Counted from the whole stretch's first letter, positions 4,749 to 53,373 are shown. The stretch is 63,995 bases of DNA, filler included, from an uncultured Myxococcia bacterium (GCA_964617105.1; 14 parts of 14 records of this genome joined end to end with filler, not necessarily neighbours in it); one strand, 5' to 3'. The notes: generated from the sequence alone by a model not told the origin. Program-made: numbers and translations.

Positions 4749-4848
4749 NNNNNNNNNNNNNNNNNNNNNNNNNNNNNNNNNNNNNNNNNNNNTTAATTAA
4801 TTAANNNNNNNNNNNNNNNNNNNNNNNNNNNNNNNNNNNNNNNNNNNN
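4749..4848. other. artificial contig spacer (N-run + TTAATTAATTAA + N-run), 13 copies in the window
   Basis: The same spacer, with stops in all six frames, recurs every ~4.6-4.8 kb and interrupts genes. Confidence 0.99.
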
Positions 4849-6216: not shown

Positions 6217-9200
6217 TCAAAACCCCTGACCCACCACCAGATAGTAGTTATCTATTCCCGGGCCGTAGATTCCCCGGGCGTATCCAAGCCTGACATTGGT
6301 AAAGATTTGGTAACCCAGGTGCAACTCCAGGCGGAGTTCAAAGCCAGTGCCAATATAGAGAGGATGAAAGGATAGTTCATGCTCAAAGGCATTGCCCCCA
6401 TCCAGAAATAGGACCAGATGAGTCCGTCCCAAATAGATAGGCAGGGTGGAGATCCCCCGCTCTAATTCCAGCAGGGGAAAACGGTATTCACCTTTGAGCA
6501 GCAGAAAAGACATACCGGAAAAGGCGTTTAGGGGAAAACCGCGCAAATAGTGGTTTCCCACCCAGATTTCTTCCATTAGATCCCGAATAATGTCCCGGCT
6601 AGGCAGCCCGCCTAGGTTGTATAGAGGCCGGTATCGATAGCCGCCCATCCCCAGACCGGCGGAAATTTTTCCTGCCAGAATGTGATGGGGAAAATAGGGC
6701 AGAGGTTGGTACATAGAGAGGGAGCCAAAACTCTCCAGGGTTAAAAAATCACCTCCCAGATAGGGAGTGTTGAGGCCCAGTCCAAAATTGGCGGCAAACC
6801 CCTTTTCATAGGAGAAAGAGAAGTAGTAACTCTCCAGGTTGCTGATGCTCCAGCGGGCGTAAAGGCCGGATTTAATACCGGTTTGGGGGATTTTGGGCTT
6901 GATATCCAGAGGGTGGAAGCGAAGTTTGGTTAATCCCCTCATCCTTTTTAGATGGTAAAACAGAGAAAATCCATAGTTATACCCAGAGAAAAGATAGTCC
7001 ATTCTGAATCCTGCCGCCGCACTCCACCGTTCCTCCAAATAGGGCATGGGATAGTAGTTACGTTCAAACAGGCCCCGGGCATTGACAATATCCCGGGCAG
7101 AGTAGAGGTAAAGTGTAGGAAAAAATGAGCGGTTAAAATAGTTGATTCTATAGAGCAGATCGTTTTGCTGGATACCAGTGGCTAGTTCAGCTTCAAATTG
7201 GTGTTTGGCCAGAACATCGGCGCCGCTGAGCAGGAAATTTATGCTGTCACCGCGGCCGTACATACTTACAAAGGGGAGCACAGCCTGGGGCCAAATTGTA
7301 TCCAGAGGTTGGTAGCGGCGAGGAGCAAGAGGCAGTTTGTCCGCATGAATGGGAGCAGAGCGGGTGGTAGCCGAGCGGGGAATCCCCAGAGAGATCTTCT
7401 GGTTTTGGCGCTTTTGCGGCAGGGTTGAATCCGGGCGCCAGTTGGAGCTATCAAGCGGGAGCCAGGCCAGGTCATACCCTTTTTCTGAGTAAGTGGTAAA
7501 GAGTATCTTTTTTCCATCCAGAGTGACTTCCGGCATAAAAGCGCCTTCTAAAAGGTTGGTTATTTGGAAGAATTGCCGTTTTTTCAGGTCAAAGGCATGG
7601 AGATTATACACTCCACTGCGATCAGATGAAAAAATCAGGTACCTGCCGCTTTTATCCCAGGTTGGATCCAGGTCTATTGCCCGGTCCACCCTCAGGGGCG
7701 TCAGGCTCTTTTGGGTCAAATGATAGATATAGATATCCCGCATTCCCCCTGGTTTCCAAAGAGAGAGGGCGATTTTATCTCCTTGCGGAGAGAAGGCCGG
7801 TGAGGCCAGATGAGTTTGCTGGTCGCCTTGAATTAGGGTTTGCAACGAGCCATCGGCAACATCCATGAGCATCAAAGAGTATTTGCCCTCAACCTCCTGG
7901 ATGGCGGCAATTTTTTTTCCATCCGGAGAGAAATCGGGCTGGCGCAACCTTTGTCCCCTGGTAATTTGCCGGGTTTGCCTTTTTTCCAGATTGTAACTAT
8001 AGAGGTCGTAAAGGTGGTAGTAGTGGTTGTGGACCCGCTGATCTTCAAAAATAATCTGCCCGCCATCAGGGGAAAAGGTGAGGGCGCTACCAGAATAGAG
8101 CCGCAGCAATTTATTACCTTTTCTGTCTTCGGGCATTGTATGATTAATTGTGGTTGTTGGTTGGCGGTCATAGTTTTTTATTACCCGCAATTGGGGGTGG
8201 CTGTGGCCATCATAAGAGAAATAGGCCAGGTGGTGGCGGGAAGAGATCCGAGGATGAAAATTATTCATTCCCTGTTTGGTTAGCGGATAGATAGGGGTCA
8301 AGACCTGGGCTTTTATCTCCTGGACTTGTTGGAAGATTTGGTTTTTTGTTTCTGCTTCAAACTCTTTCCACAGATCTATAAAACTCTTTCCAGTTGCTTC
8401 CTGGGCAGTAATATTCAGGGAATAGGGCACCACTTTCCGGCCGTAACTATAGATAAAGTCCGCAAAGAAATCATCACCATGGTTTTGTAAAATATAGTTG
8501 ACAAAGTAACTGCCCAGCAGATAGGGGAGGGCTCCTTTGGGCCAGCGGTGCGGCCTGCCGGTTATCTGGTCCAGGGAGGGGAAATTGCCGGCCAGCACCA
8601 TGGCTCTGATATACATGTTATACATGGAGTTACCCACTCTGCCGCCAGAGGAGATTTTGGTTTCCACCAGAGTGGCCAGACCCTCTATGAACCAGGTGGG
8701 CAGCAAATGGTTCGGCGCCACTAGTTTACCAAACAGGGTATTGATAACAGCGGGGATACCGCCCACTGTATTCAGATGGATGATATGAGCATACTCGTGG
8801 GCCGCCAATATGCGGTACCAGTTGTCGTGGTCGTTGAGCACCGAAAATGGTTGGGGCCTGGATACATTCAGATGGATTACATCGTAGGGTATAGTGGAGG
8901 CGGAACCGTTGGCACTTTGCACCTCGTCACTTATCACCACCTGCACCCGGTTTGTTTTGCCGTGGTTGCGCGCCTGCTTCTGCAAAAAAGCATCTACGGT
9001 GACAGCCACCTCCTCCAGGTAATTAGCCACTTTGCCCGCCAAATTTTGGTATGGAGCGGGAAAGGTGATCACAAAGTGTTGGGTCTCCAGGCTTTGCCAG
9101 TCAATTTTCGGGTCATGGCTGTGTGCCGGGCCAATATTCGAGAATAAAAATAGCAAAACTAACCCAAAAAATATCACAGTGCGGGCTGGTATTATATTTA

Positions 9201-9315
9201 TTATGTTATATTGCCAATCATGGCGCAAAATATCAAACCTCTTTGGCAGTTGGCGTCTGCAGACCCACCTGCTGCCAAGTGAATTCTCGGACGGGAACTT
9301 GATCCACAGTGGCAA
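6217..9315 (-). CDS. outer-membrane protein: zinc peptidase-like domain + TolB/PD40 propeller + Omp85/BamA-type barrel (true start probably ~9180-9200)
   Basis: Signal-like segment before HSHDP; HEYAH..H and WFIEGLAT; repeated P.FSPDG; LRGFP and GEYRFP barrel motifs; terminal Phe. Confidence 0.85.
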   Translation of the reverse strand: MPLWIKFPSENSLGSRWVCRRQLPKRFDILRHDWQYNIINIIPARTVIFFGLVLLFLFSNIGPAHSHDPKIDWQSLETQHFVITFPAPYQNLAGKVANYLEEVAVTVDAFLQKQARNHGKTNRVQVVISDEVQSANGSASTIPYDVIHLNVSRPQPFSVLNDHDNWYRILAAHEYAHIIHLNTVGGIPAVINTLFGKLVAPNHLLPTWFIEGLATLVETKISSGGRVGNSMYNMYIRAMVLAGNFPSLDQITGRPHRWPKGALPYLLGSYFVNYILQNHGDDFFADFIYSYGRKVVPYSLNITAQEATGKSFIDLWKEFEAETKNQIFQQVQEIKAQVLTPIYPLTKQGMNNFHPRISSRHHLAYFSYDGHSHPQLRVIKNYDRQPTTTINHTMPEDRKGNKLLRLYSGSALTFSPDGGQIIFEDQRVHNHYYHLYDLYSYNLEKRQTRQITRGQRLRQPDFSPDGKKIAAIQEVEGKYSLMLMDVADGSLQTLIQGDQQTHLASPAFSPQGDKIALSLWKPGGMRDIYIYHLTQKSLTPLRVDRAIDLDPTWDKSGRYLIFSSDRSGVYNLHAFDLKKRQFFQITNLLEGAFMPEVTLDGKKILFTTYSEKGYDLAWLPLDSSNWRPDSTLPQKRQNQKISLGIPRSATTRSAPIHADKLPLAPRRYQPLDTIWPQAVLPFVSMYGRGDSINFLLSGADVLAKHQFEAELATGIQQNDLLYRINYFNRSFFPTLYLYSARDIVNARGLFERNYYPMPYLEERWSAAAGFRMDYLFSGYNYGFSLFYHLKRMRGLTKLRFHPLDIKPKIPQTGIKSGLYARWSISNLESYYFSFSYEKGFAANFGLGLNTPYLGGDFLTLESFGSLSMYQPLPYFPHHILAGKISAGLGMGGYRYRPLYNLGGLPSRDIIRDLMEEIWVGNHYLRGFPLNAFSGMSFLLLKGEYRFPLLELERGISTLPIYLGRTHLVLFLDGGNAFEHELSFHPLYIGTGFELRLELHLGYQIFTNVRLGYARGIYGPGIDNYYLVVGQGF

Positions 9316-9805
9316 AATGCCAACATAGAGAACAATATTATATTAATGTAATTGTAGATTTTTGAAAAGCTTAGTTTTTTATCTTCTCTTCCGGGAAGGG
9401 TGAGAGTTTTCCAAACTAGAAGATACCAAAACAAAATCCTGCATTAGATTATCAAAAAGATGGTCAGAGTCCAAAGAGAATGTAAGGCAAAAGCGCTGTC
9501 CCAGATGTAATCGATTAGTTTCAGTCAAGACCTATGATGTATCCAGAACAATAATAACCCGTATGGGAGAAGTGACTTANNNNNNNNNNNNNNNNNNNNN
9601 NNNNNNNNNNNNNNNNNNNNNNNTTAATTAATTAANNNNNNNNNNNNNNNNNNNNNNNNNNNNNNNNNNNNNNNNNNNNATCCATTACTTTTTTACGAAA
9701 AAACATGGTCTATTTTCCCTTTTTATGGCAAAATTTAGAGTACTTGTAGAGATTGAGCATCTATGAAGCCATGAAAAAACCGGGTAAAACCAGAGGGGGT
9801 TGACA

Positions 9806-11407
9806 ATGAAGTTAATTTCCAGACGGAAACTAACTAGTAATCCAATTGCCGCTTTCAAATCAATTGTTCTATGGATAATGTTGATTTGGCTGCTAATTCC
9901 AACATTCAGCACCCAGGCTCAACACCTGAGATATGCCGAGGACCGGGCCCCAAGTACACTAAACCCGGTGTACGCCGATGATATGTATTCCACCAGAATC
10001 ACGGAATTGATCTTTAGTCCCCTAATTGGTGTGGATAAAGAACAAAATCCCATGCCGGTTTTAGCCAACAGATTCGAAATTTCTAAGGATAGCAAACAGA
10101 TTGTAGTTTTCCTTAAAAACGGTATTAAGTGGCATGACGGACGCAATTTTACCGCAGATGACGTGATTTTTACGGTTGCCGCTATGAAACACCCGAAAAC
10201 CACAACCTCTGACAAAGCCCTGCTGATGCTAATTAAAAAGGTGGAAAAACTGGGAGAATTTGTGCTGAAATTCCATTTTACCAGGAGCCTGAGTAACCCG
10301 GCTCGCTACTTGAGTTTCAAAATTCTGCCCAAACACCTATTTGACAAGCCCTATATCAAACGGGACAATTTTTTTGGACGTAAACCAGTTGGTACTGGTC
10401 CGTTTAAATTTATCCGCTGGTATGGCAACAACAAGATCGAACTGGAAAAAAATCCCTATTATTTTGCCCCTTTATTTTTACCGGGCGTTGATTTCCAGGA
10501 GATCACCGACAAAAATATCCAAATGAACGTGCTAAAATACGGGGGCTTGGATATCATTATCCGGGTCAGGCCCAAAGATATCCCGATTTTTGAAAAAATC
10601 GACAGTACTGACCTTTTCCCCTATTCCACTCTAAGTTGGTGGTATTTAGCTTTTAATCACAAAAAGTCACCCTTTAAAAACAAATATCTTAAGAGAGCTC
10701 TGATTTTCGCGCTGGATAGAGAAAAACTTCGTGAAGCCCACCTGGGTGACGGTGATACCATCTCCGGTCCCTACTCTCCCTCCAGCCCTTTTTATAATTT
10801 CCAGGTGGAACCACGAGCATATGATCCTCAAATGGCTAAAAAACTACTGGCCAAGGCGGGATATAAACTAAAAGGTGGAGTACTGAAGAAGGGAAAGCGC
10901 CAGTTGGCTTTTACCATTACCGTTGATAAATCTCTGGCTATATATAAAAACGTCTGCCTGGATATCCAAAGTCAGTGGAACGCTCTTGGAATAAAAGTAG
11001 ATATCATCTGGATGGATACAGCAGAAGTAAAGTTAAAAGTATTCCGCCAGAAAAAATACGATATCTACCTGGATTCATGGAGTTTTGATGAACTTTCCAA
11101 TGTCTATCCACTTTTTCACTCCCAAGGTTCTCTCAACTTTATCAACTATAAAAACCGAAAAGTTGATAAACTGCTCCTGAGCAGTAAAAAAATAAGTGAC
11201 CCAGACCGGCTGCGAAGCCACTTTATGGAGTTACACTCTATTCTCCACCAGGACGTACCCTACATATTTCTCTGGTCTCTCATCGGTTATTCCGCTATCA
11301 ACCGCCGAGTCGAAAGCGTTTNNNNNNNNNNNNNNNNNNNNNNNNNNATTCATCCCTTTTATTACTTTACCTATGCGGAAGAATGGAAATTAAAAAAGCC
11401 CCAGTAG
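9806..11407 (+). CDS. ABC peptide transporter substrate-binding protein (family 5); contains an internal N gap
   Basis: TLNPV, KWHDGRNFTADDVIFT and PVGTGPFKF motifs; signal peptide. Confidence 0.92.
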   Translation: MKLISRRKLTSNPIAAFKSIVLWIMLIWLLIPTFSTQAQHLRYAEDRAPSTLNPVYADDMYSTRITELIFSPLIGVDKEQNPMPVLANRFEISKDSKQIVVFLKNGIKWHDGRNFTADDVIFTVAAMKHPKTTTSDKALLMLIKKVEKLGEFVLKFHFTRSLSNPARYLSFKILPKHLFDKPYIKRDNFFGRKPVGTGPFKFIRWYGNNKIELEKNPYYFAPLFLPGVDFQEITDKNIQMNVLKYGGLDIIIRVRPKDIPIFEKIDSTDLFPYSTLSWWYLAFNHKKSPFKNKYLKRALIFALDREKLREAHLGDGDTISGPYSPSSPFYNFQVEPRAYDPQMAKKLLAKAGYKLKGGVLKKGKRQLAFTITVDKSLAIYKNVCLDIQSQWNALGIKVDIIWMDTAEVKLKVFRQKKYDIYLDSWSFDELSNVYPLFHSQGSLNFINYKNRKVDKLLLSSKKISDPDRLRSHFMELHSILHQDVPYIFLWSLIGYSAINRRVESVXXXXXXXXXIHPFYYFTYAEEWKLKKPQ

Positions 11408-14367: not shown

Positions 14368-14606
14368 NNNNNNNNNNNNNNNNNNNNNNNNNNNNNNNNN
14401 NNNNNNNNNNNTTAATTAATTAANNNNNNNNNNNNNNNNNNNNNNNNNNNNNNNNNNNNNNNNNNNNCGGCTTGGCCTTGATAGTGATGTTATCCATGGC
14501 AGTCGGCCACATAAGGGCTGGCCTCGAGGTTGAAATTTGCCACATGTCGAAAGGCTCCAATCGATATCCTCTTTTCATAAATCTATGCAGATGTTATGTG
14601 TTAGTA

Positions 14607-16922
14607 ATGAATATTCTGCTTATAAATCCACCGGTTTTAACAGTTGATCCCTTCCAGACCTGCATGTATGCCGAGGCTATACCCTACGGCCTGATTAAAA
14701 TCGCCACCTGGCTAAAAAGCCAGGGAAACAATATCCTTTTTTATGACATGATGGGGTATTGGGATGATAATTTTGAAAACTCTTGCCATCCAGAACACTA
14801 TTATGGCCATAAACCAGCTGGCGATAATAGGGTAAAAGATTTTCATTTGCCGGTTTATCTTTATGGAGACAACTTTGCCAATCTGGAACAATTCCTGTCA
14901 ACCTGCCCTACCCTGGATGAAATCTATTTAACCAACTGCCTATCCTATAATTATGAAATAGCCCTTAAGATTATCGCTATCTGCAAAAACTATTTTCCAG
15001 AGGTTTTTATTCGATTTGGCGGGTTTTATCCCACCACTTTTCCGGAACATGCTGCTAAGTCGGGGGCGGATCAAATATTTTCCGGCTTTCACCAGCAATC
15101 GGAAACCATTAGTCCTGATCTTTCCATTTTGGAAGAAACTCCGTCTATTTGGATCTTTCAATTGTCAAGAGGTTGTAAATACCGGTGCTCATATTGTCTT
15201 AACTACCCTTCTAGCCGGAAGAAAGTCTATTCTGCCGAACAAGCAGTGGATGAGATTGAAGAAATTTATCAACAATATGGGATCACCACTTTTTCCAACT
15301 GGGATCCAAATGTTCTGCTCAGCATAAATACGCTAAACCAGTTCCTGGACTGCCTGCTGGAGCGGAAACTGCCCATCAGGCTTAAGTTTGAGATGGGGAT
15401 TCAGCCCAACTTGTTGACCAGAGAGTTGGCCAACAAAATGTTGCAGGCAGGATGCCGGGCTATGACAATTCCTTTTGAAAGTGCCCTCCCTTCTATGCTA
15501 AAACGTTTTGGCAAACCCTATTCGGTAGAGGCGCCCATAGAAGCCATGAGTTTTTGCAAAGAACTTGGCTTTGATACTAACCATTTTCACTGTACCTTTG
15601 TGGTGGGGATAGATGGCGAAGGATTTGAGCATATATTTTCTACCTATTTTACCATAATCAAAGCGGGAGGATGGCCTACCCCTTTTCCCCTTACCCTGAC
15701 ACCGGGCACCCGGGAGATGGAGCGTCATAAACATTACCTCTTTGGCAAGGGGCTGGATCAACTCAATGGCCATTTATGGCCTTGTTTAGGGTCAAAAGAG
15801 GAGATCCAACTGTATCAACTGATAATGAAGATTATCACCCGCCAACCAGATCGGGAACAGGAGAGATTAGTTGGCCAACTGCCCGCCAGGGTAGCGAAAA
15901 TATATGATGATTATCGCAACCATAATCATCAAAATAACACTGATATTCAACCCTTAATTCAAACCAAATATTCTGGTCAACAACAACGGCAGGAGACTCC
16001 CGGAGGAGTCTTAGCCAAATGGTTTGATTTGGCTGGTAACACTTTAAAAACACAAGGTTTTGATGATTCGCCAGACCTTAAACATTTGGAGAAATATATT
16101 GGAGAGCAGTTGGTTTTGGATCAAAAACTTTACTCATTTATATTTGAACCATCCATAAAAATGAGTGGTAATACTGCCAGTGCCTATAGGTTCTCCTATA
16201 GTTGGCCTTTTTATCAAGAACCAGAACGGCGACAACAGGCAGATAGAGCGCTAAAGCAGTTTGTTTCCTGTTTTGCAGGTGAGTTTAGAGACTATTTTGA
16301 TCAGGCAATCTCTTTGGCTAAGATGCCGGTTGTGCAGCAGATTATCTTTGGTTTTGAGTTTAGATCTCATCTTGATTTTCGGCTTAAACTCTATTTTCAA
16401 TTTGATCCCGGCCTTGAAACCGAAAAAGAAAAAATGTTGCGGGCACTTGGAATCAATCAGGCGGACAGGTTTAAGAAAATACCTCTATCTACACTGCATC
16501 TGGTGGGCATGGATTTAAAAAAAGGGGGGATTAGCGGCCTTAAGCTCTATTTTTTACAGGAGCAGATATCTCTGATTGAGTTGCCCAGCCAATCTCTGAG
16601 CCAAAATTGTTTGCTTCAGTTTTTACGCTCCAAGGGATATAAATCTCTAACCGATTTTTTAATGATCATGCGTATCAATAATCCTGATAATCCTGAACAA
16701 TATACTTGTAGAGAAATAGATTTTTCCCTTTTTAATAATGGGATAACCTTTGATTTGTTAAAGGAGTTTTTGCAAACTCAGGCCCCTGAAAGTGGTGGGG
16801 CTGAAATTTTTAATATGCAACTATTTGACCTTTTTAAATCGCAACTACCATTGCAGGAAAATCGGATTTCGATTCCAATTCAGGATATTACGGAGATGAC
16901 CATCTATTACCGGCTTTTTTAA
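14607..16922 (+). CDS. cobalamin-binding radical SAM enzyme fused to a C-terminal LynF/TruF/PatF-like (ABBA prenyltransferase-like) domain
   Basis: MNILLINPP...PYGLIKIATWL...GGFYPT (B12-binding fold); SRGCKYRCSYC; Q/N-rich linker. C-terminal FEPSIK...YRFSY...QIIFGFEFR...RLKLYF...LVGMDL...GLKLYF resembles the PatF-family repeated strands. The rSAM call is firm; the C-domain call is tentative. Confidence 0.75.
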   Translation: MNILLINPPVLTVDPFQTCMYAEAIPYGLIKIATWLKSQGNNILFYDMMGYWDDNFENSCHPEHYYGHKPAGDNRVKDFHLPVYLYGDNFANLEQFLSTCPTLDEIYLTNCLSYNYEIALKIIAICKNYFPEVFIRFGGFYPTTFPEHAAKSGADQIFSGFHQQSETISPDLSILEETPSIWIFQLSRGCKYRCSYCLNYPSSRKKVYSAEQAVDEIEEIYQQYGITTFSNWDPNVLLSINTLNQFLDCLLERKLPIRLKFEMGIQPNLLTRELANKMLQAGCRAMTIPFESALPSMLKRFGKPYSVEAPIEAMSFCKELGFDTNHFHCTFVVGIDGEGFEHIFSTYFTIIKAGGWPTPFPLTLTPGTREMERHKHYLFGKGLDQLNGHLWPCLGSKEEIQLYQLIMKIITRQPDREQERLVGQLPARVAKIYDDYRNHNHQNNTDIQPLIQTKYSGQQQRQETPGGVLAKWFDLAGNTLKTQGFDDSPDLKHLEKYIGEQLVLDQKLYSFIFEPSIKMSGNTASAYRFSYSWPFYQEPERRQQADRALKQFVSCFAGEFRDYFDQAISLAKMPVVQQIIFGFEFRSHLDFRLKLYFQFDPGLETEKEKMLRALGINQADRFKKIPLSTLHLVGMDLKKGGISGLKLYFLQEQISLIELPSQSLSQNCLLQFLRSKGYKSLTDFLMIMRINNPDNPEQYTCREIDFSLFNNGITFDLLKEFLQTQAPESGGAEIFNMQLFDLFKSQLPLQENRISIPIQDITEMTIYYRLF

Positions 16923-16924
16923 CC

Positions 16925-19154
16925 ATGAATAAAACTATTCTGATCATCAATCCTCCCCTTAAAGTAGAAAAACCCTATGTGGATAATCCGGTTTTTTCTT
17001 TCCATGTAGCATATACCTTTTATTTATCAGTTAAAAATAAGTTCCAGGATAAAGAGATAAATTTTTTAGATGCTTTTCTATTAGCACCACCCCAAAATTT
17101 AGAAAAATCGATCAAAATTGGACCATCTCCGGAAGATTTTGCCGATCAGGTAAATAACCTGAAATGGGATCTGCTAATTATTAATTTCCCCTCATTTTTT
17201 CGGGCATCACCAATAAATTTTACCTATTTTCTCCGCTTTTTTCAGGCATTGAAACCAATTGGCAGGGAGATCTATTTCAGCGATTTTTACGATACCTCAA
17301 CCCTTTATATTGATTACGAAACTCAAAATTTATCTGCAGCTTTTTCTACCTTTGGAGGTAAGCAAAAGATATTTCGGAGAGACCATATGCCGCTGGGCAT
17401 CAATTTGGTCAACCTTTTGGAGGTTGAACAAGGTGCTGGAGAGTTAGAGTCTGATTACCTGGCCTTTATTCAACAGTGTCTCTCACTGGATTTAATCAAA
17501 GATATCAAAAACATTGGCGACCATACCAGATTATTTCCCTACCTTACCTCCATTGGCTGTCCTCAAAAGTGTATTTTTTGTTCCGCCCGGGCAACTCGAT
17601 GGCAGGGAAAATCATTAGAGCAGATTAGTCGAGATGTTGAGTATTTTTCTCATCAAAAAATAGATTACCTGGTTATCCTGGACCAAAATTGCAACTATCA
17701 AAAAGCGCATTGTCTGGGGCTGCTAAAACTGCTGAAACAAAAGAGAATTAAAGCCCATTTTGCCAATGGTATCAGCCTGGCCAGTATTGATGAACAACTG
17801 GCCCAGCATTTGGCTTGTAGTGGTGATTTTCTATATATCTCTCCAGAATCAGGATCGGATAAGCAATTGAAGATATTAAAAAAACCGCTATCCAGAGAGG
17901 AGATTGAGCAAAAAATATCCCTGTTAAGTCTATCTGGGGCGAAATTGCGGGCCCACTATATACTCAATACTCCTGGGGAGGAAAAAGAGGATACCTTTCA
18001 GACTCTTGATACTGCCTGGATATGGTATTTGGAGTATGGGGTTCTACCTTTTTTTCAAAGGTTTGTTTCTCTGAAAAGTCTTAAAAAATGTGCCAGTGTC
18101 AATCAAAGTGACCAGAAAACCTCTACCAAAAATATTTTTAAACTTTTTAGCCCAGCCCATAAGTCTTCACAACCAAACTGGATTAGTGTTGCCTACAGAT
18201 GTTTTCAGCAAAAACTGCTTTTGCCAGAACACCGAAAATTGATTATCAATGTTAGTTATTGCTGCAACAACAACTGTATTTTTTGTTCTGTGGCAGACAG
18301 AGAACGGATAGATGGAAAACTGGAGCAGCAAAAAGAGCATATTGACCAGGCGGCCCAAAAAGGGATTACCAGTTTGGATATTGATGGCGGCGAACCATTG
18401 CTCTATCCCCATTTGTTTGAGTTAATCGGATATGCCAGAGCCCAGGGATTTGACCGTATCAACCTCACCACCAACGGCCGGTTACTTATATATAATAGTA
18501 TAGTAAAAAAATTGGCCTGCCAGCCGGGATTATCAGTGCTGGTTTCTCTCCATGCTGCTCAGGCAGAAGTTCACGATCAACTTACTCGAGTTAAGGGAAG
18601 TTTTGATCAGACTTTAGAAGGGTTGAAAAATGCCCAAGGTGTTATTGGCAATTTGGGGGTTAATTTTACTATCATCTCTAAGAATTATCAGCAGTTGCCA
18701 TTTTTTATCAACCTGATGCAAAAATTGGGAATAGATATTGTAAATATTCAATATTATACCCCCTTTGGCCGCAAGGAGAACCATCTGACACCCCCTGAGA
18801 AAGCCATAGATCAGGTGAAAACAGCCCTCCAAATGGCCATTAACAGCAACAAGATTAGAGTCAATCTGGTAAACTTTTTACCCTGTATGGCTCCAGAATT
18901 GGCTCAGTATATGGGGGGAGATTATTTTAAGGAATCCCGGTACATGGTGTTTGTTGATAACCGGCGGGTAAATTTGGCCCGGTTTCTGGGTGAAAAACGC
19001 TATTATGGAGAAGCCTGCGCTCAATGCGCCTATCGCTGTACCTGCCGTGGTTTTTGGGATTTTGGGGAGGCCGGACAGGATTCTGCGCCAAAAAAAGTGC
19101 GATATTTTACTGCTGAAGAAGAACAGCCTATTCAGAGGCAGGCTGCAACGGATA
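16925..19154 (+). CDS. tandem double radical SAM protein (B12-type rSAM + HxsC-like rSAM with C-terminal Cys cluster); 3' partial
   Basis: ILIINPP N-terminus; TSIGCPQKCIFC; second motif CNNNCIFC with GGEPLL, TTNGRLL and VSLH; terminal CAQCAYRCTCRG. Confidence 0.85.
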
Positions 19155-19254
19155 NNNNNNNNNNNNNNNNNNNNNNNNNNNNNNNNNNNNNNNNNNNNTT
19201 AATTAATTAANNNNNNNNNNNNNNNNNNNNNNNNNNNNNNNNNNNNNNNNNNNN

Positions 19255-32403: not shown

Positions 32404-33177
32404 CTAGCGTTTGGATTTCAATCTCTCTAGTCTAAAAAATTCTCGGGACAGTTTAACGGAAAAATCTATCTTCTGCCAGAAAACCTCGGTGTATTCATGG
32501 GCTTCGTCAAGAGGGGTCATCCTCATTTTCATTGGCATCACCCTGCCCTGCAACTTTTGGTGCTGAAAAAATTGCAAAATCCGCACCGCTTTTCCATCCT
32601 CATCGTAAAAAACCTGGCGCAAAGGCTGTAAATCGTGCTGGCGCACTTCGGTTTCTATTTTTCCCCATACAATGGGGGCATCCGGTTTGGGAATCAAGCG
32701 AAAACGATAAATCTCCTCCTCTTTCTGGAGGCCGCTAAAAAGTAGCTTCACCGTGTAGTCCTCTGAAAAACGGGTGTGCTTGACCAGGTCGTCATTGGTA
32801 AAGTGGCTGCCCATCCAGGATCCACCCATCCGTTCGGCGGTAACCTTTAGAGTCCGACCCGTCTTGTTCNNNNNNNNNNAAATAAATGAAGAGATTATCT
32901 TTCACCTTCAGGGTGGCGGTACCCTTCTCTTTTTTGGGCTTTATGATCCGCACCAGAGAATATTCGCTGCCCAGCGACCAGGACTCCAGAGTAATAGATC
33001 GTTGCCAATATTTGGTCTTCACCTTCATGGTCATAAGTCCCTGGCTACTGGCTCCCCGGTACATTTCATCGATCTTCTGCATCACATAGGTGATAAAAGC
33101 GGGTGAGGAGGGATCTGGTTTTCCCTGGGGTTTACCGTTATTATCAGCCCAGGAAAAGTTAAAAAACGCCAGGAATA
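32404..33177 (-). CDS. outer-membrane lipoprotein-sorting (LolA-like) protein; split by a 10-N gap, 5' partial
   Basis: KIDEMYRG...P.KEKGTATLK, then SWMGSHFTNDDLV and FYDEDG; the two ORF pieces flank the gap at 32870-32879. Confidence 0.85.
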
Positions 33178-51822: not shown

Positions 51823-53373
51823 TTCCACAAATTGTCGGCAAACATTTTTCAATAAAAAGCGCGGTTTGTCAACAATTCCACCAAACCTGGCCAGATTGCA
51901 CGGATCATGGTAAGTGACTGGAAAACTATTCGCTTCAGGGTTGAAACAAATATTTTTTTGAGAGACCAACCGAGCCAGAGTTTCAACTATACTTTCAACC
52001 TTATTAACTAATTTACCTCTACTCGCCCCCACCATCTCTCTTATTAATGTTATATAACCATGGCCGCACTCTGTCACCACGATTTTACCGATTTGTAGCT
52101 TTTGGGCTTGCTCGATAACTAAACCGCTTATACTCGATTGGAGTTGATCATCTCCGGAAAAATAGCCAAAGTTGCTATTATCCCATCCGGTTGAAGGCAA
52201 AGTCCAATCGACTTTGGCCTGGGTAAGAAGTTTGAAAACTGCTAACAGGGTACGGGGATCGTATTTGATCTCCCGCGGGTGGATGGTAAGCAGCACTTCA
52301 GCATTTTGTTTGTCCAGAGGAATCTTCAGTTTATCGTTGCCAAGATCATCTTTCAACTCCTGTTCCAGCCAATCAATGGTTTCAAAATATTCCTGGCTAG
52401 AGATACCTAGATGATTGCCTTTTTGGCGCTGGAAATTGCAGGCTTTGACAATCTGTTGAGGAGCGTTATTTTGCCTGGTCAATATGCCTCTGGTATGGCG
52501 ATGCAATGAGGCTGCGTCTATACCCATGGGGCAATTTATAGAACAGCGGCCGCAGAGAGAGCAGGCACCATAGGATATATCTCTCATCTCATCTACCGAC
52601 AAATCCTTAGTTGTTTGGCAAAAAAGTTTATAAGGGGTGGAAATTTTGATATCCCGGTTGGCCTGGTAATAGTGACATGCTTCAAGGCAAAGACCACAGC
52701 GAAGACAGTTTTGTTTATGATAATCAAGATATATTCCGCTTCGATTACCTAAATAGCAATCCGCATACAGGCGTCCTACCGGCCAGGTCAGACAGTGCTT
52801 AAATTTGCCAAAAGGGAGAGATAGGAAAACAGCGATGCCAAATAGATAAAACACCATAACTGCAACTTCATTCTGGATTGAAAGGAGAATTACAGCGCTA
52901 AATATCCATAAACCCACTATGGCCAGATAAAAAATATCATCTCGGTTACTAAAAACAGCCTTTTTATCTGAATCGATACGTTGGTAGAGTCTTATGGCAA
53001 CAGCGCCCAATCCAAACAACAAAACCATTCGCAAAGGGATATTTATCCCTCTGGCCAACAGGATATTGCTTAACAGTGGAAAAATCAGTGAGATCAGTAT
53101 AGTGACCCCAATACTGAGATGAAACAGGATATAAGTGATATACTGGCCAGAAGCATCTTTATGGCCTTCAACAGAATCAATGCTTATTATATTTTTAAAA
53201 TCTGCACTAAAACGGCTAAAAATACTCCTGAAGGAAACTAAATTTCCACTCATGGCAGCAGCCTTGAGATAATGTTTAATTTTGAAATAACAGAGCAGGC
53301 CAGCGGTCAGGATAGATAACCACAATACTATGGTGCTCAATATTTTGGTAAAAAGGCTAAGTTCTGAATACAT
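51823..53373 (-). CDS. membrane-anchored (Fe-S)/CCG-domain oxidoreductase (NarI/DsrM-like TM region + DsrK/HdrD-like region); 3' partial
   Basis: About 5 N-terminal TMs ending LPFGKFKH; CLRCGLCLEAC and CSLCGRCSINCP; TECGHGY; TYHDPCNLAR. Confidence 0.85.

Follow-up and report, generated by a model that had tools for sequence, protein, structure and literature searches.

The stretch of DNA analysed here (the window) comprises 63,995 bases from an uncultured Myxococcia bacterium, and one of its contigs carries a pair of genes for enzymes of the radical S-adenosylmethionine (SAM) type. The first (gene 1) encodes a B12-type radical SAM enzyme fused to a domain with the ABBA prenyltransferase fold, and the second (gene 2) encodes several radical SAM modules in tandem. 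The coupling of this prenyltransferase-fold barrel to radical SAM enzymes, which occurs among relatives both as gene fusion and as gene adjacency, is the firmest new result of our analysis. Most likely, the contig is a piece of a large, rare, radical-SAM-rich biosynthetic cluster that would make and tailor a small molecule (perhaps a cofactor) and not a ribosomal peptide. The component enzymes are of known kinds, which is not the case for their coupling or for the product of the cluster.

An earlier interpretation, termed the sequence-only reading below, had proposed that the two genes form a maturation unit for a ribosomally made, post-translationally modified peptide (RiPP). Its domain calls were right, given that radical SAM modules, Rossmann/B12-type N-terminal domains, and a prenyltransferase-like domain with LynF/TruF/PatF-type sequence relatives are all found. 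Its broader suggestion of a multi-step tailoring pathway, matching no described and characterised cluster, also stands.

Gene 1 joins a radical SAM enzyme to a prenyltransferase-fold barrel

Gene 1 (14607..16922, plus strand) encodes 771 amino acids; an alignment of 12 homologues supports the ATG at 14607 as its start, since their N-termini coincide with it. The protein opens with a Rossmann/B12-binding-type domain (14607..15140, approximately residues 1-178), which carries ILLINPP at 14613-14633, and continues into a radical SAM core (15162..15641; Pfam residues 186-345) with the motif CKYRCSYC at residue 190 (15174-15197). This core belongs to the Pfam family Radical_SAM (PF04055), with a score of 68.1 bits relative to a cut-off of 29.5. 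When residues 1-450 are compared with NCBIfam, all rows are class B enzymes at approximately 20-45 bits, far under their cut-offs, and the top row, 'RiPP maturation radical SAM C-methyltransferase' (TIGR03975), reaches 44.7 bits relative to 281.85. The only PDB sequence match is TsrM (E 5.9e-5), which is a generic match to the core. The Pfam B12-binding family (PF02310) is absent at E <= 0.1 from both window proteins, and it is recorded in many gene 1 homologues and in the fused relatives P0086, P0094, and P0175. The sequence thus places residues 1-450 among radical SAM enzymes of the B12 type, with cobalamin binding putative.

The C-terminal domain (residues 471-771; 16017..16919, plus strand) was modelled with AlphaFold2 from an alignment of 12 relatives. 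The model, with a mean predicted local distance difference test score (pLDDT) of 86.8, has 10 strands in 5 pairs with helix pairs between them, which corresponds to the ten-stranded antiparallel barrel of five alpha-alpha-beta-beta units that defines the ABBA fold. KgpF, PagF, LimF, DciF, and PatF rank at the top of a Foldseek search with E values of ~1e-10. Alignments made with VIA-align give Z scores of 20.1-16.4 over 251-288 of the 301 residues, and the best 50 matches listed are prenyltransferases throughout, with Z 20.1-19.3 for bacterial DMATS-type enzymes and Z 17.9-16.4 for peptide (F-type) prenyltransferases. What had been described from sequence as a prenyltransferase-like domain is thus confirmed at the level of fold (pLDDT 86.8; Z 16-20 to solved prenyltransferases).

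Matches at the level of sequence are more distant. The barrel profile detects, among PDB sequences, solved relatives of the LynF/TruF/PatF type only (9vtd, E 1.5e-5; SmiF, 1.2e-3; LimF, 0.16). The curated model for this type, TIGR04445 (cut-off 140 bits), gives no match at E <= 0.01 to the C-terminal domain or to its close relatives P0078 and P0081, and the Pfam model for Trp_DMAT (PF11991) scores gene 1 at 13.5 bits, below its gathering cut-off of 25. Despite identities of only 23-33%, 12 sequences of the barrel family share 22 invariant columns. The family-invariant residues include E44, S46, R58, K124, Y126, Q128, D166, K176, Y178, R219, E233, D235, R283, and Y297 (domain numbering), and the invariant Glu and the repeated Arg/Lys-x-Tyr residues sit on the barrel strands. 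We presume, from what is known of ABBA enzymes, that this is the pattern expected of a diphosphate-binding active site. The invariant Glu, Arg, Lys, and Tyr residues suggest that the active site is intact, and transfer from a prenyl diphosphate is predicted.

Most Myxococcota relatives carry an additional four-Cys stretch (CxxCx5C, with a further Cys 11-16 residues on) immediately before the barrel. It is found in eight loci (L003, L005, L007, L009, L010, L013, L015, and L016) and in the fused forms P0006-P0009, P0018, and P0019, and is lacking in the window protein and in L001, the locus of its closest relative. This stretch could be a zinc or iron-sulfur site.

The barrel is coupled to radical SAM enzymes among relatives

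The barrel family is small: a search of 1.84 billion proteins gives 169 representatives at E <= 0.001, of which 111 remain at E <= 1e-30. Six long representatives were scanned with Pfam, and the four that gave matches all contain Radical_SAM, three of them together with a B12-binding domain. Both orders of fusion exist, since the radical SAM part precedes the barrel in P0086, P0094, and P0175 and follows it in P0141. The remaining two long representatives, P0130 and P0216, gave no Pfam match.

Gene neighbourhoods provide similar evidence. Among 17 orthologous gene-1-type loci taken from reference genomes (L001-L017), a barrel gene is present in 13: it is fused in 2, immediately precedes the gene for the B12-type radical SAM enzyme in 10, and is found 5.3 kb downstream in 1. 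Of the other four loci, two (L012 and L014) have a contig end on the side where it would be expected, one (L011) has no barrel gene in view, and one (L017) has the barrel elsewhere in the genome. In addition, 11 of the 17 loci contain one or more HxsC-like radical SAM genes. Side by side, the exact gene pair occurs in one locus only, that of the closest relative (L001), which is also the only one of these loci with the full gene 2 architecture beside a gene-1-type gene; L081 and L082 show the same arrangement more distantly. Upstream of the gene-1-like gene in L081 lies a gene for a 375-amino acid protein, which was tested as a divergent prenyltransferase and gave a weak match (hhalign probability 11%). 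The trait is rarely encountered, in that the family of the Desulfobacter metagenome-assembled genome (MAG) carrying L001 has a barrel gene in 2 of its 161 genomes. Given this distribution, the barrel locus is a rare accessory trait.

Gene 2 carries a series of radical SAM modules

Gene 2 (16925..19154, plus strand) starts 2 bp after the gene 1 stop codon ends at 16922, as had been noted earlier. Its 3' end is cut by the contig end, leaving 743 amino acids visible. The missing portion can probably be supplied from P0064, a protein identical to the last 288 residues of gene 2 that then runs on for 328 residues and includes a fourth CxxxCxxC motif (CNSGCIFC) and a second CxxCx5C. Joined in this way, full-length gene 2 would comprise 1071 amino acids; its full-length homologues have 998-1015 residues. 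Because the P0064 continuation holds CNSGCIFC, the gene pair has four radical SAM modules and not three. The three CxxxCxxC motifs that the sequence-only reading listed (CKYRCSYC, CPQKCIFC, and CNNNCIFC) each fall inside a Pfam Radical_SAM match above the cut-off. For gene 2 this match totals 101.4 bits in two stretches, relative to the membership cut-off of 29.5.

Module 1 (16925..18124, plus strand) pairs a Rossmann-like N-terminal domain, which begins with ILIINPP, with a radical SAM core carrying CPQKCIFC at residue 212 (17558-17581). The best fold matches for a model of its first 400 residues (pLDDT 78.8) are two-domain enzymes, namely MiaB, AprD4, MgmA, OxsB, TsrM, CysS, and TokK, among which MiaB and AprD4 score as well as the B12 enzymes do. 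Module 1 is therefore assigned as B12-type by its predicted fold, with cobalamin use putative. The N-terminal 'ILxINPP' domains of genes 1 and 2 had been described as related. Both motifs are present, and the relatedness of the domains is loose: a profile-profile comparison of the two genes aligns the radical SAM cores (98.9%, E 1e-17) and leaves the N-terminal domains outside the reported match.

Module 2 (18245..19153, plus strand) is a MoaA/HxsC/NirJ-like radical SAM module with CNNNCIFC at residue 447 (18263-18286). Its auxiliary motif consists of C654 (18884-18886) and CAQCAYRCTC, the CxxCx5C cluster already pointed out in the sequence-only reading, at residue 698 (19016-19045, plus strand). 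Only four Cys residues are conserved (C654, C698, C701, and C707), a set that we take to be twitch-like, and this number suggests one auxiliary iron-sulfur cluster per module. The SPASM family (PF13186), which has approximately seven Cys for two auxiliary clusters, is not matched by gene 2 at E <= 0.1. Modules 2 and 3 resemble HxsC, NirJ, AhbD, MoaA, and BlsE about equally (65-100 bits in NCBIfam), with all scores below the curated cut-offs; the HxsC model (TIGR03977) reaches 100.3 bits relative to 267.9. HxsA, HxsB, and HxsD are not named among the best 25 of the 73 NCBIfam families matched by gene 2.

Searches with relatives of gene 2 mostly return generic matches. Those of the homologue P0065 to PDB sequences (BlsE, viperin, SuiB, MoaA, and GDGT-MAS) are generic matches to the core, and the ESM Atlas contains clusters annotated simply as 'radical SAM' or 'hypothetical', with the gene 2 family filed as 'hypothetical' and mostly from Myxococcota. 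Among 80 metagenome loci of the gene 2 type, 45 show the three modules in colinear order, and 25 more have two modules in line only, which in some cases is caused by a contig end. In 22 of these 80 loci, a gene for a class I methyltransferase is found no more than 4 kb away. Also, two low-GC metagenome contigs without other cluster genes carry a 611-amino acid stand-alone fusion of two HxsC-like modules only (L118:1054-2889 and L119:7518-9353), with 44% and 42% identity to the gene 2 modules.

Some relatives lie in radical-SAM-rich clusters with nitrogenase-like genes

The best relatives of the gene pair come from Desulfobacter and Myxococcota MAGs, and the closest orthologue of both genes is found in L001 of the Desulfobacter MAG (53% identity to the radical SAM part of gene 1 and 40-47% to the later modules of gene 2). 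There, a gene-2-type gene is immediately followed by the gene-1-type gene, and another 5.3 kb separate the latter from the barrel gene. Together with the upstream locus L161, this region forms a same-strand cluster of approximately 32 kb that contains genes for 13 radical SAM enzymes together with NifH-, NifD-, and NifK-like ones. The order is three unknown proteins, four radical SAM genes, the NifH-/NifD-/NifK-like genes, nine radical SAM genes, and the barrel gene, except that the last of the nine, a radical SAM-methyltransferase fusion, follows the barrel gene and is encoded on the opposite strand. Of the 17 gene-1-type loci, 5 have nitrogenase-like genes (L001 with L161, L004, L005, L007, and L012), as do 4 of the 80 gene-2-type loci. 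The nitrogenase-like proteins fall under every curated cut-off for NifH, CfbC, BchL, BchX, and NifD/K, and the few named relatives of the NifH-like proteins are from Myxococcota or 'Deltaproteobacteria'.

Several features of these clusters deserve separate mention. The gene-2-type gene of L001 is split into two overlapping frames (L001:6999-9972; frames 6999-8909 and 8689-9972), which means that the long-read assembly contains a frameshift or that the gene itself is broken. Immediately after the NifK-like gene, the same locus encodes a 601-amino acid protein (L001:922-2727; G001:C1:2576462-2576974) that has no Pfam or NCBIfam match and is matched weakly by the prenyltransferase-family profile (E 7.8e-4); this match makes it a candidate for a second barrel of very divergent sequence. 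Large proteins of 477-957 amino acids in L005:4281-7567, L007:5255-8163, L012:5541-10429, and L161:1342-6509 likewise have no Pfam or NCBIfam match except for a weak one to DUF483, and they are conserved between close loci only.

A peptide substrate finds little support in the clusters

The RiPP proposal predicts that a precursor gene and partner functions would recur near the enzymes. No precursor is encoded on the 4.7-kb contig, as the sequence-only reading had observed. When 240 small open reading frames (ORFs) of 25-110 codons from 14 loci were tested, none was common to diverged loci; shared ones were found only among the near-identical L093, L098, and L099 and in the close pair L015/L016. 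This absence is weak evidence, since precursors diverge fast. Pfam was also used to scan the cluster genes of nine loci (L001, L161, L005, L007, L012, L081, L082, L093, and L102). PqqD/RRE was matched neither in gene 1 or gene 2 nor among these scanned genes, and none of the scanned genes matched a leader protease or exporter family. An ABC-transporter ATPase gene lies beside a ROK kinase gene at the edge of L001. Without a conserved small ORF, RRE, SPASM, protease, or exporter, and with the HxsC model below its cut-off and the LynF/TruF/PatF model unmatched, the RiPP label for the gene pair is unsupported. The sequence-only reading had stated that its proposal would fail if homologues sat in a known non-peptide pathway or if the genes were never co-conserved. 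What was found goes half-way towards such a refutation: homologues do reside in radical-SAM-rich, nitrogenase-like clusters for which a cofactor role is a prediction, and the pair is adjacent in 1 of 17 loci.

Candidate pathways and their rivals

The explanation that we favor, tentatively and at slightly less than an even chance, is a pathway of the type that goes with nitrogenase paralogues, leading to a cofactor-like product and not to a peptide, in which gene 1 prenylates and then radically tailors an intermediate and gene 2 adds three radical steps. The ABBA barrel of gene 1 would transfer an isoprenyl group from a prenyl diphosphate to a pathway intermediate. Its B12-type radical SAM part would then modify an unactivated carbon of the prenylated product, with C-methylation being the most likely reaction and cyclisation the other candidate. 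The one B12-type and two MoaA/HxsC/NirJ-like modules of gene 2 would perform radical steps, one after another, on one and the same scaffold, and an ATP-driven NifH/D/K-like reductase, encoded in the same cluster in the closest relative, would supply a reduction step. The domain architecture, the folds, the coupling of prenyltransferase and radical SAM parts, and the surroundings in relatives are shown, whereas each reaction and the substrate are inferred, and the genome from which the window derives may also encode such a reductase. An even more specific version, which we consider unlikely, is that a few anaerobic Desulfobacterota and Myxococcota make a previously unseen cofactor that is prenylated, tailored by radical SAM enzymes, possibly derived from a tetrapyrrole, and dependent on the nitrogenase-like reductase. 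The fusion would then be a new enzyme type, performing prenyl transfer and subsequent radical methylation or cyclisation in one protein.

A number of observations weigh against the cofactor-type pathway. The two-gene contig carries neither a reductase nor a further cluster gene, and the other contigs of the window yielded no NifH/D/K-like or methyltransferase match. Among relatives, no nitrogenase-like gene is seen in the available sequence of 12 of the 17 orthologous loci, and in four genomes (G002-G005) the NifH-like genes are far from the prenyltransferase locus or on a different contig. Tetrapyrrole genes (HemN_C, chelatase, and uroporphyrinogen enzymes) were matched in none of the Pfam scans of clusters, and for this reason the cofactor idea stays a prediction. 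The only solved relatives of the barrel that sequence can detect are peptide prenyltransferases, which favors a peptide substrate. AprD4 and MiaB have the two-domain fold predicted for gene 2 module 1 yet do not use B12. Finally, the likeness to the published 'group VI' nitrogenase-like clusters discussed below is one of gene content, and membership of the reductases in that group is putative.

Three other explanations must be considered against this background. In RiPP maturation, a precursor encoded off the contig would receive its prenyl group from the F-type-like domain and C-methyl groups from the B12-type modules, and the HxsC-like modules would cross-link or epimerise it. A precursor gene would not show on so short a contig, RiPP prenyltransferases account for all PDB sequence matches of the barrel profile and lead the Foldseek ranking (KgpF, PagF, LimF, DciF, and PatF), and the top NCBIfam rows are the RiPP maturation C-methyltransferase for gene 1 and HxsC for gene 2, albeit far under cut-off. 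The scores of the curated models count against it (TIGR03977, 100.3 relative to 267.9 bits; TIGR03975, 44.7 relative to 281.85; TIGR04445, no match at E <= 0.01), as do the lack of a common small ORF in diverged loci and the PqqD/RRE, SPASM, protease, and exporter families unmatched among the genes scanned. Structural Z puts the barrel slightly closer to prenyltransferases whose substrate is free tryptophan or an indole (Z 20) than to those of RiPP pathways (17-18). Furthermore, we know of no precedent for a nitrogenase-like reductase in a RiPP pathway. Overall, a peptide product seems improbable. Should the substrate nevertheless be a peptide, the genes would represent a new class of RiPPs, one served by four radical SAM modules.

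The top structural matches, being DMATS-type enzymes that act on free tryptophan or indoles, suit a second rival equally doubtful on balance, in which the pathway is independent of the nitrogenase-like enzyme and makes a prenylated aromatic or isoprenoid secondary metabolite or a lipid. The barrel would then prenylate an acceptor of the small aromatic or amino-acid type, with methylation or cyclisation of the isoprenoid chain left to the radical SAM modules, in the manner of the ring synthases of glycerol dialkyl glycerol tetraethers (GDGTs) or hopanoid methylases. The nitrogenase-like gene is out of view in 12 of 17 loci, the rare and patchy spread (2 of 161 genomes) is typical of accessory metabolism, and the NCBIfam rows include lipid-biosynthesis B12/radical SAM enzymes and HpnJ, again far under cut-off. 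However, no polyprenyl synthase, terpene cyclase, or lipid genes were seen in the scanned clusters, and the closest orthologous cluster has its reductase embedded among radical SAM genes on the same strand. It is less probable still that the barrel is non-catalytic and serves as a substrate-holding or scaffolding domain for its radical SAM partner, a role modelled on the cyanobactin protein PatF, which is said to be inactive. Although the curated prenyltransferase models are not matched (PF11991, 13.5 relative to 25 bits; TIGR04445, no match) and many relatives have the extra Cys-rich stretch (CxxCx5C...C) ahead of the barrel, the 22 columns invariant in 12 sequences at 23-33% identity, including Glu and Arg/Lys-x-Tyr on strands, argue for a working active site.

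Contig boundaries and other features of the window

The window is a chain of contigs of approximately 4.6 kb, in order of descending length, with N44-TTAATTAATTAA-N44 linkers between them at 4749-4848, 9580-9679, 14368-14467, 19155-19254, and ten further places. Because the window consists of concatenated contigs, gene adjacency across a linker is artificial. The gene pair resides on the 4687-bp contig 14468..19154, between the linkers at 14368-14467 and 19155-19254; this contig carries the two genes only and is their sole true genomic context. Since position 19154 is a contig end, genes past the linkers are not neighbours of gene 1 or gene 2. The Opp-type transporter genes before the pair and the dGTPase gene after it thus belong to other contigs.

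Runs of N are also present inside contigs, at 11322-11347 (26 bases) and 32870-32879 (10 bases), and likely are scaffold gaps or masked stretches, not joins between contigs; the former breaks up an OppA-like gene. Another contig carries a gene for a TmcB/DsrK/HmcF-like iron-sulfur protein (51823-53373, minus strand), a hint of an organism akin to sulfate reducers. Taken together with the Desulfobacter and Myxococcota MAGs of the best relatives, it may point to an anaerobic source resembling Desulfobacterota. An Rfam scan of contig 14468-19154 found no riboswitch, giving only two sub-threshold chance matches.

Comparison with known systems

The F-type peptide prenyltransferases (PagF, KgpF, LimF, DciF, and PatF) share with gene 1 an ABBA barrel of approximately 300 residues, and their 'E-x-S', 'R-F', 'K-L', and 'L-H-L-G-x-D' positions align with it. 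Identity to the gene 1 barrel is only 12-15%, and TIGR04445 does not recognize it. Unlike in F-type systems, the barrel here has a B12-type radical SAM enzyme as its fusion partner or neighbour, and no cyanobactin protease, precursor, or heterocyclase is present. The bacterial DMATS-type indole prenyltransferases (5-DMATS of S. coelicolor, 6zrz; IptA; PriB; CymD) superpose with Z 19.3-20.1 and a root-mean-square deviation of 3.2-3.6 over 276-288 residues. They are stand-alone enzymes of approximately 350 residues, in contrast to the gene 1 barrel, with 12-14% identity to it and a Trp_DMAT score of 13.5 relative to 25 bits. A literature search found nothing relevant on SmiF or FjoF.

Similar relationships hold for the radical SAM parts. 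Class B radical SAM enzymes such as TsrM, CysS, TokK, OxsB, and MgmA share the N-terminal Rossmann-like domain followed by the CxxxCxxC core, whereas their curated subfamilies do not extend to the proteins studied here (best 44.7 bits relative to cut-offs of 281-600). Modules 2 and 3 of gene 2 are alike to HxsC, NirJ, AhbC, AhbD, MoaA, and BlsE, each with a four-Cys auxiliary motif. They differ from HxsC-type enzymes in being fused in tandem behind a B12-type module, and the partners HxsA, HxsB, and HxsD are absent from the two-gene contig. A link to GDGT or branched GDGT lipids was considered and rejected; the available literature on these lipids names Tes, Mss, Grs, and Gms, with no connection to the proteins described here.

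A further resemblance is to clusters encoding a new group of nitrogenase paralogues. In its available text, the report of this group describes as many as 13 radical SAM genes next to those of the paralogues, with B12 domains in some of them, lists Elusimicrobia, two Gracilibacteria, and fourteen genomes of Myxococcales as carriers of the paralogues, and predicts, without testing, that a tetrapyrrole is reduced to a novel cofactor (Meheust et al. 2020; bioRxiv 10.1101/765248). The accessible portions of a later review state that group VI is still without a characterised member, and rank the function of such nitrogenase-like enzymes among the greatest challenges of the field (Chem Rev 2026; PMC13474568). 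Searches of full-text literature, in which supplements are not searchable, found no fusion of a radical SAM enzyme with a prenyltransferase and no cluster combining nitrogenase-like, radical SAM, and prenyltransferase genes. The word 'prenyl' occurs 0 times in the text available from either of these two papers (10.1101/765248; PMC13474568). The link, by fusion and by adjacency, between a dedicated prenyltransferase family of ABBA fold and a B12-type radical SAM enzyme is thus a chemical clue that these sources, as far as they are available, do not mention. As judged from the same sources, those orthologous loci described here that have a nitrogenase-like reductase otherwise look much like 'group VI' clusters, with NifH-like and very divergent NifD/K-like genes, up to 13 radical SAM genes of which several have B12 domains, and a home in Myxococcota and their relatives. 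Their predicted prenyltransferase, if soluble, could be assayed aerobically against candidate acceptors and would offer a testable entry into the problem of these nitrogenase-like enzymes.

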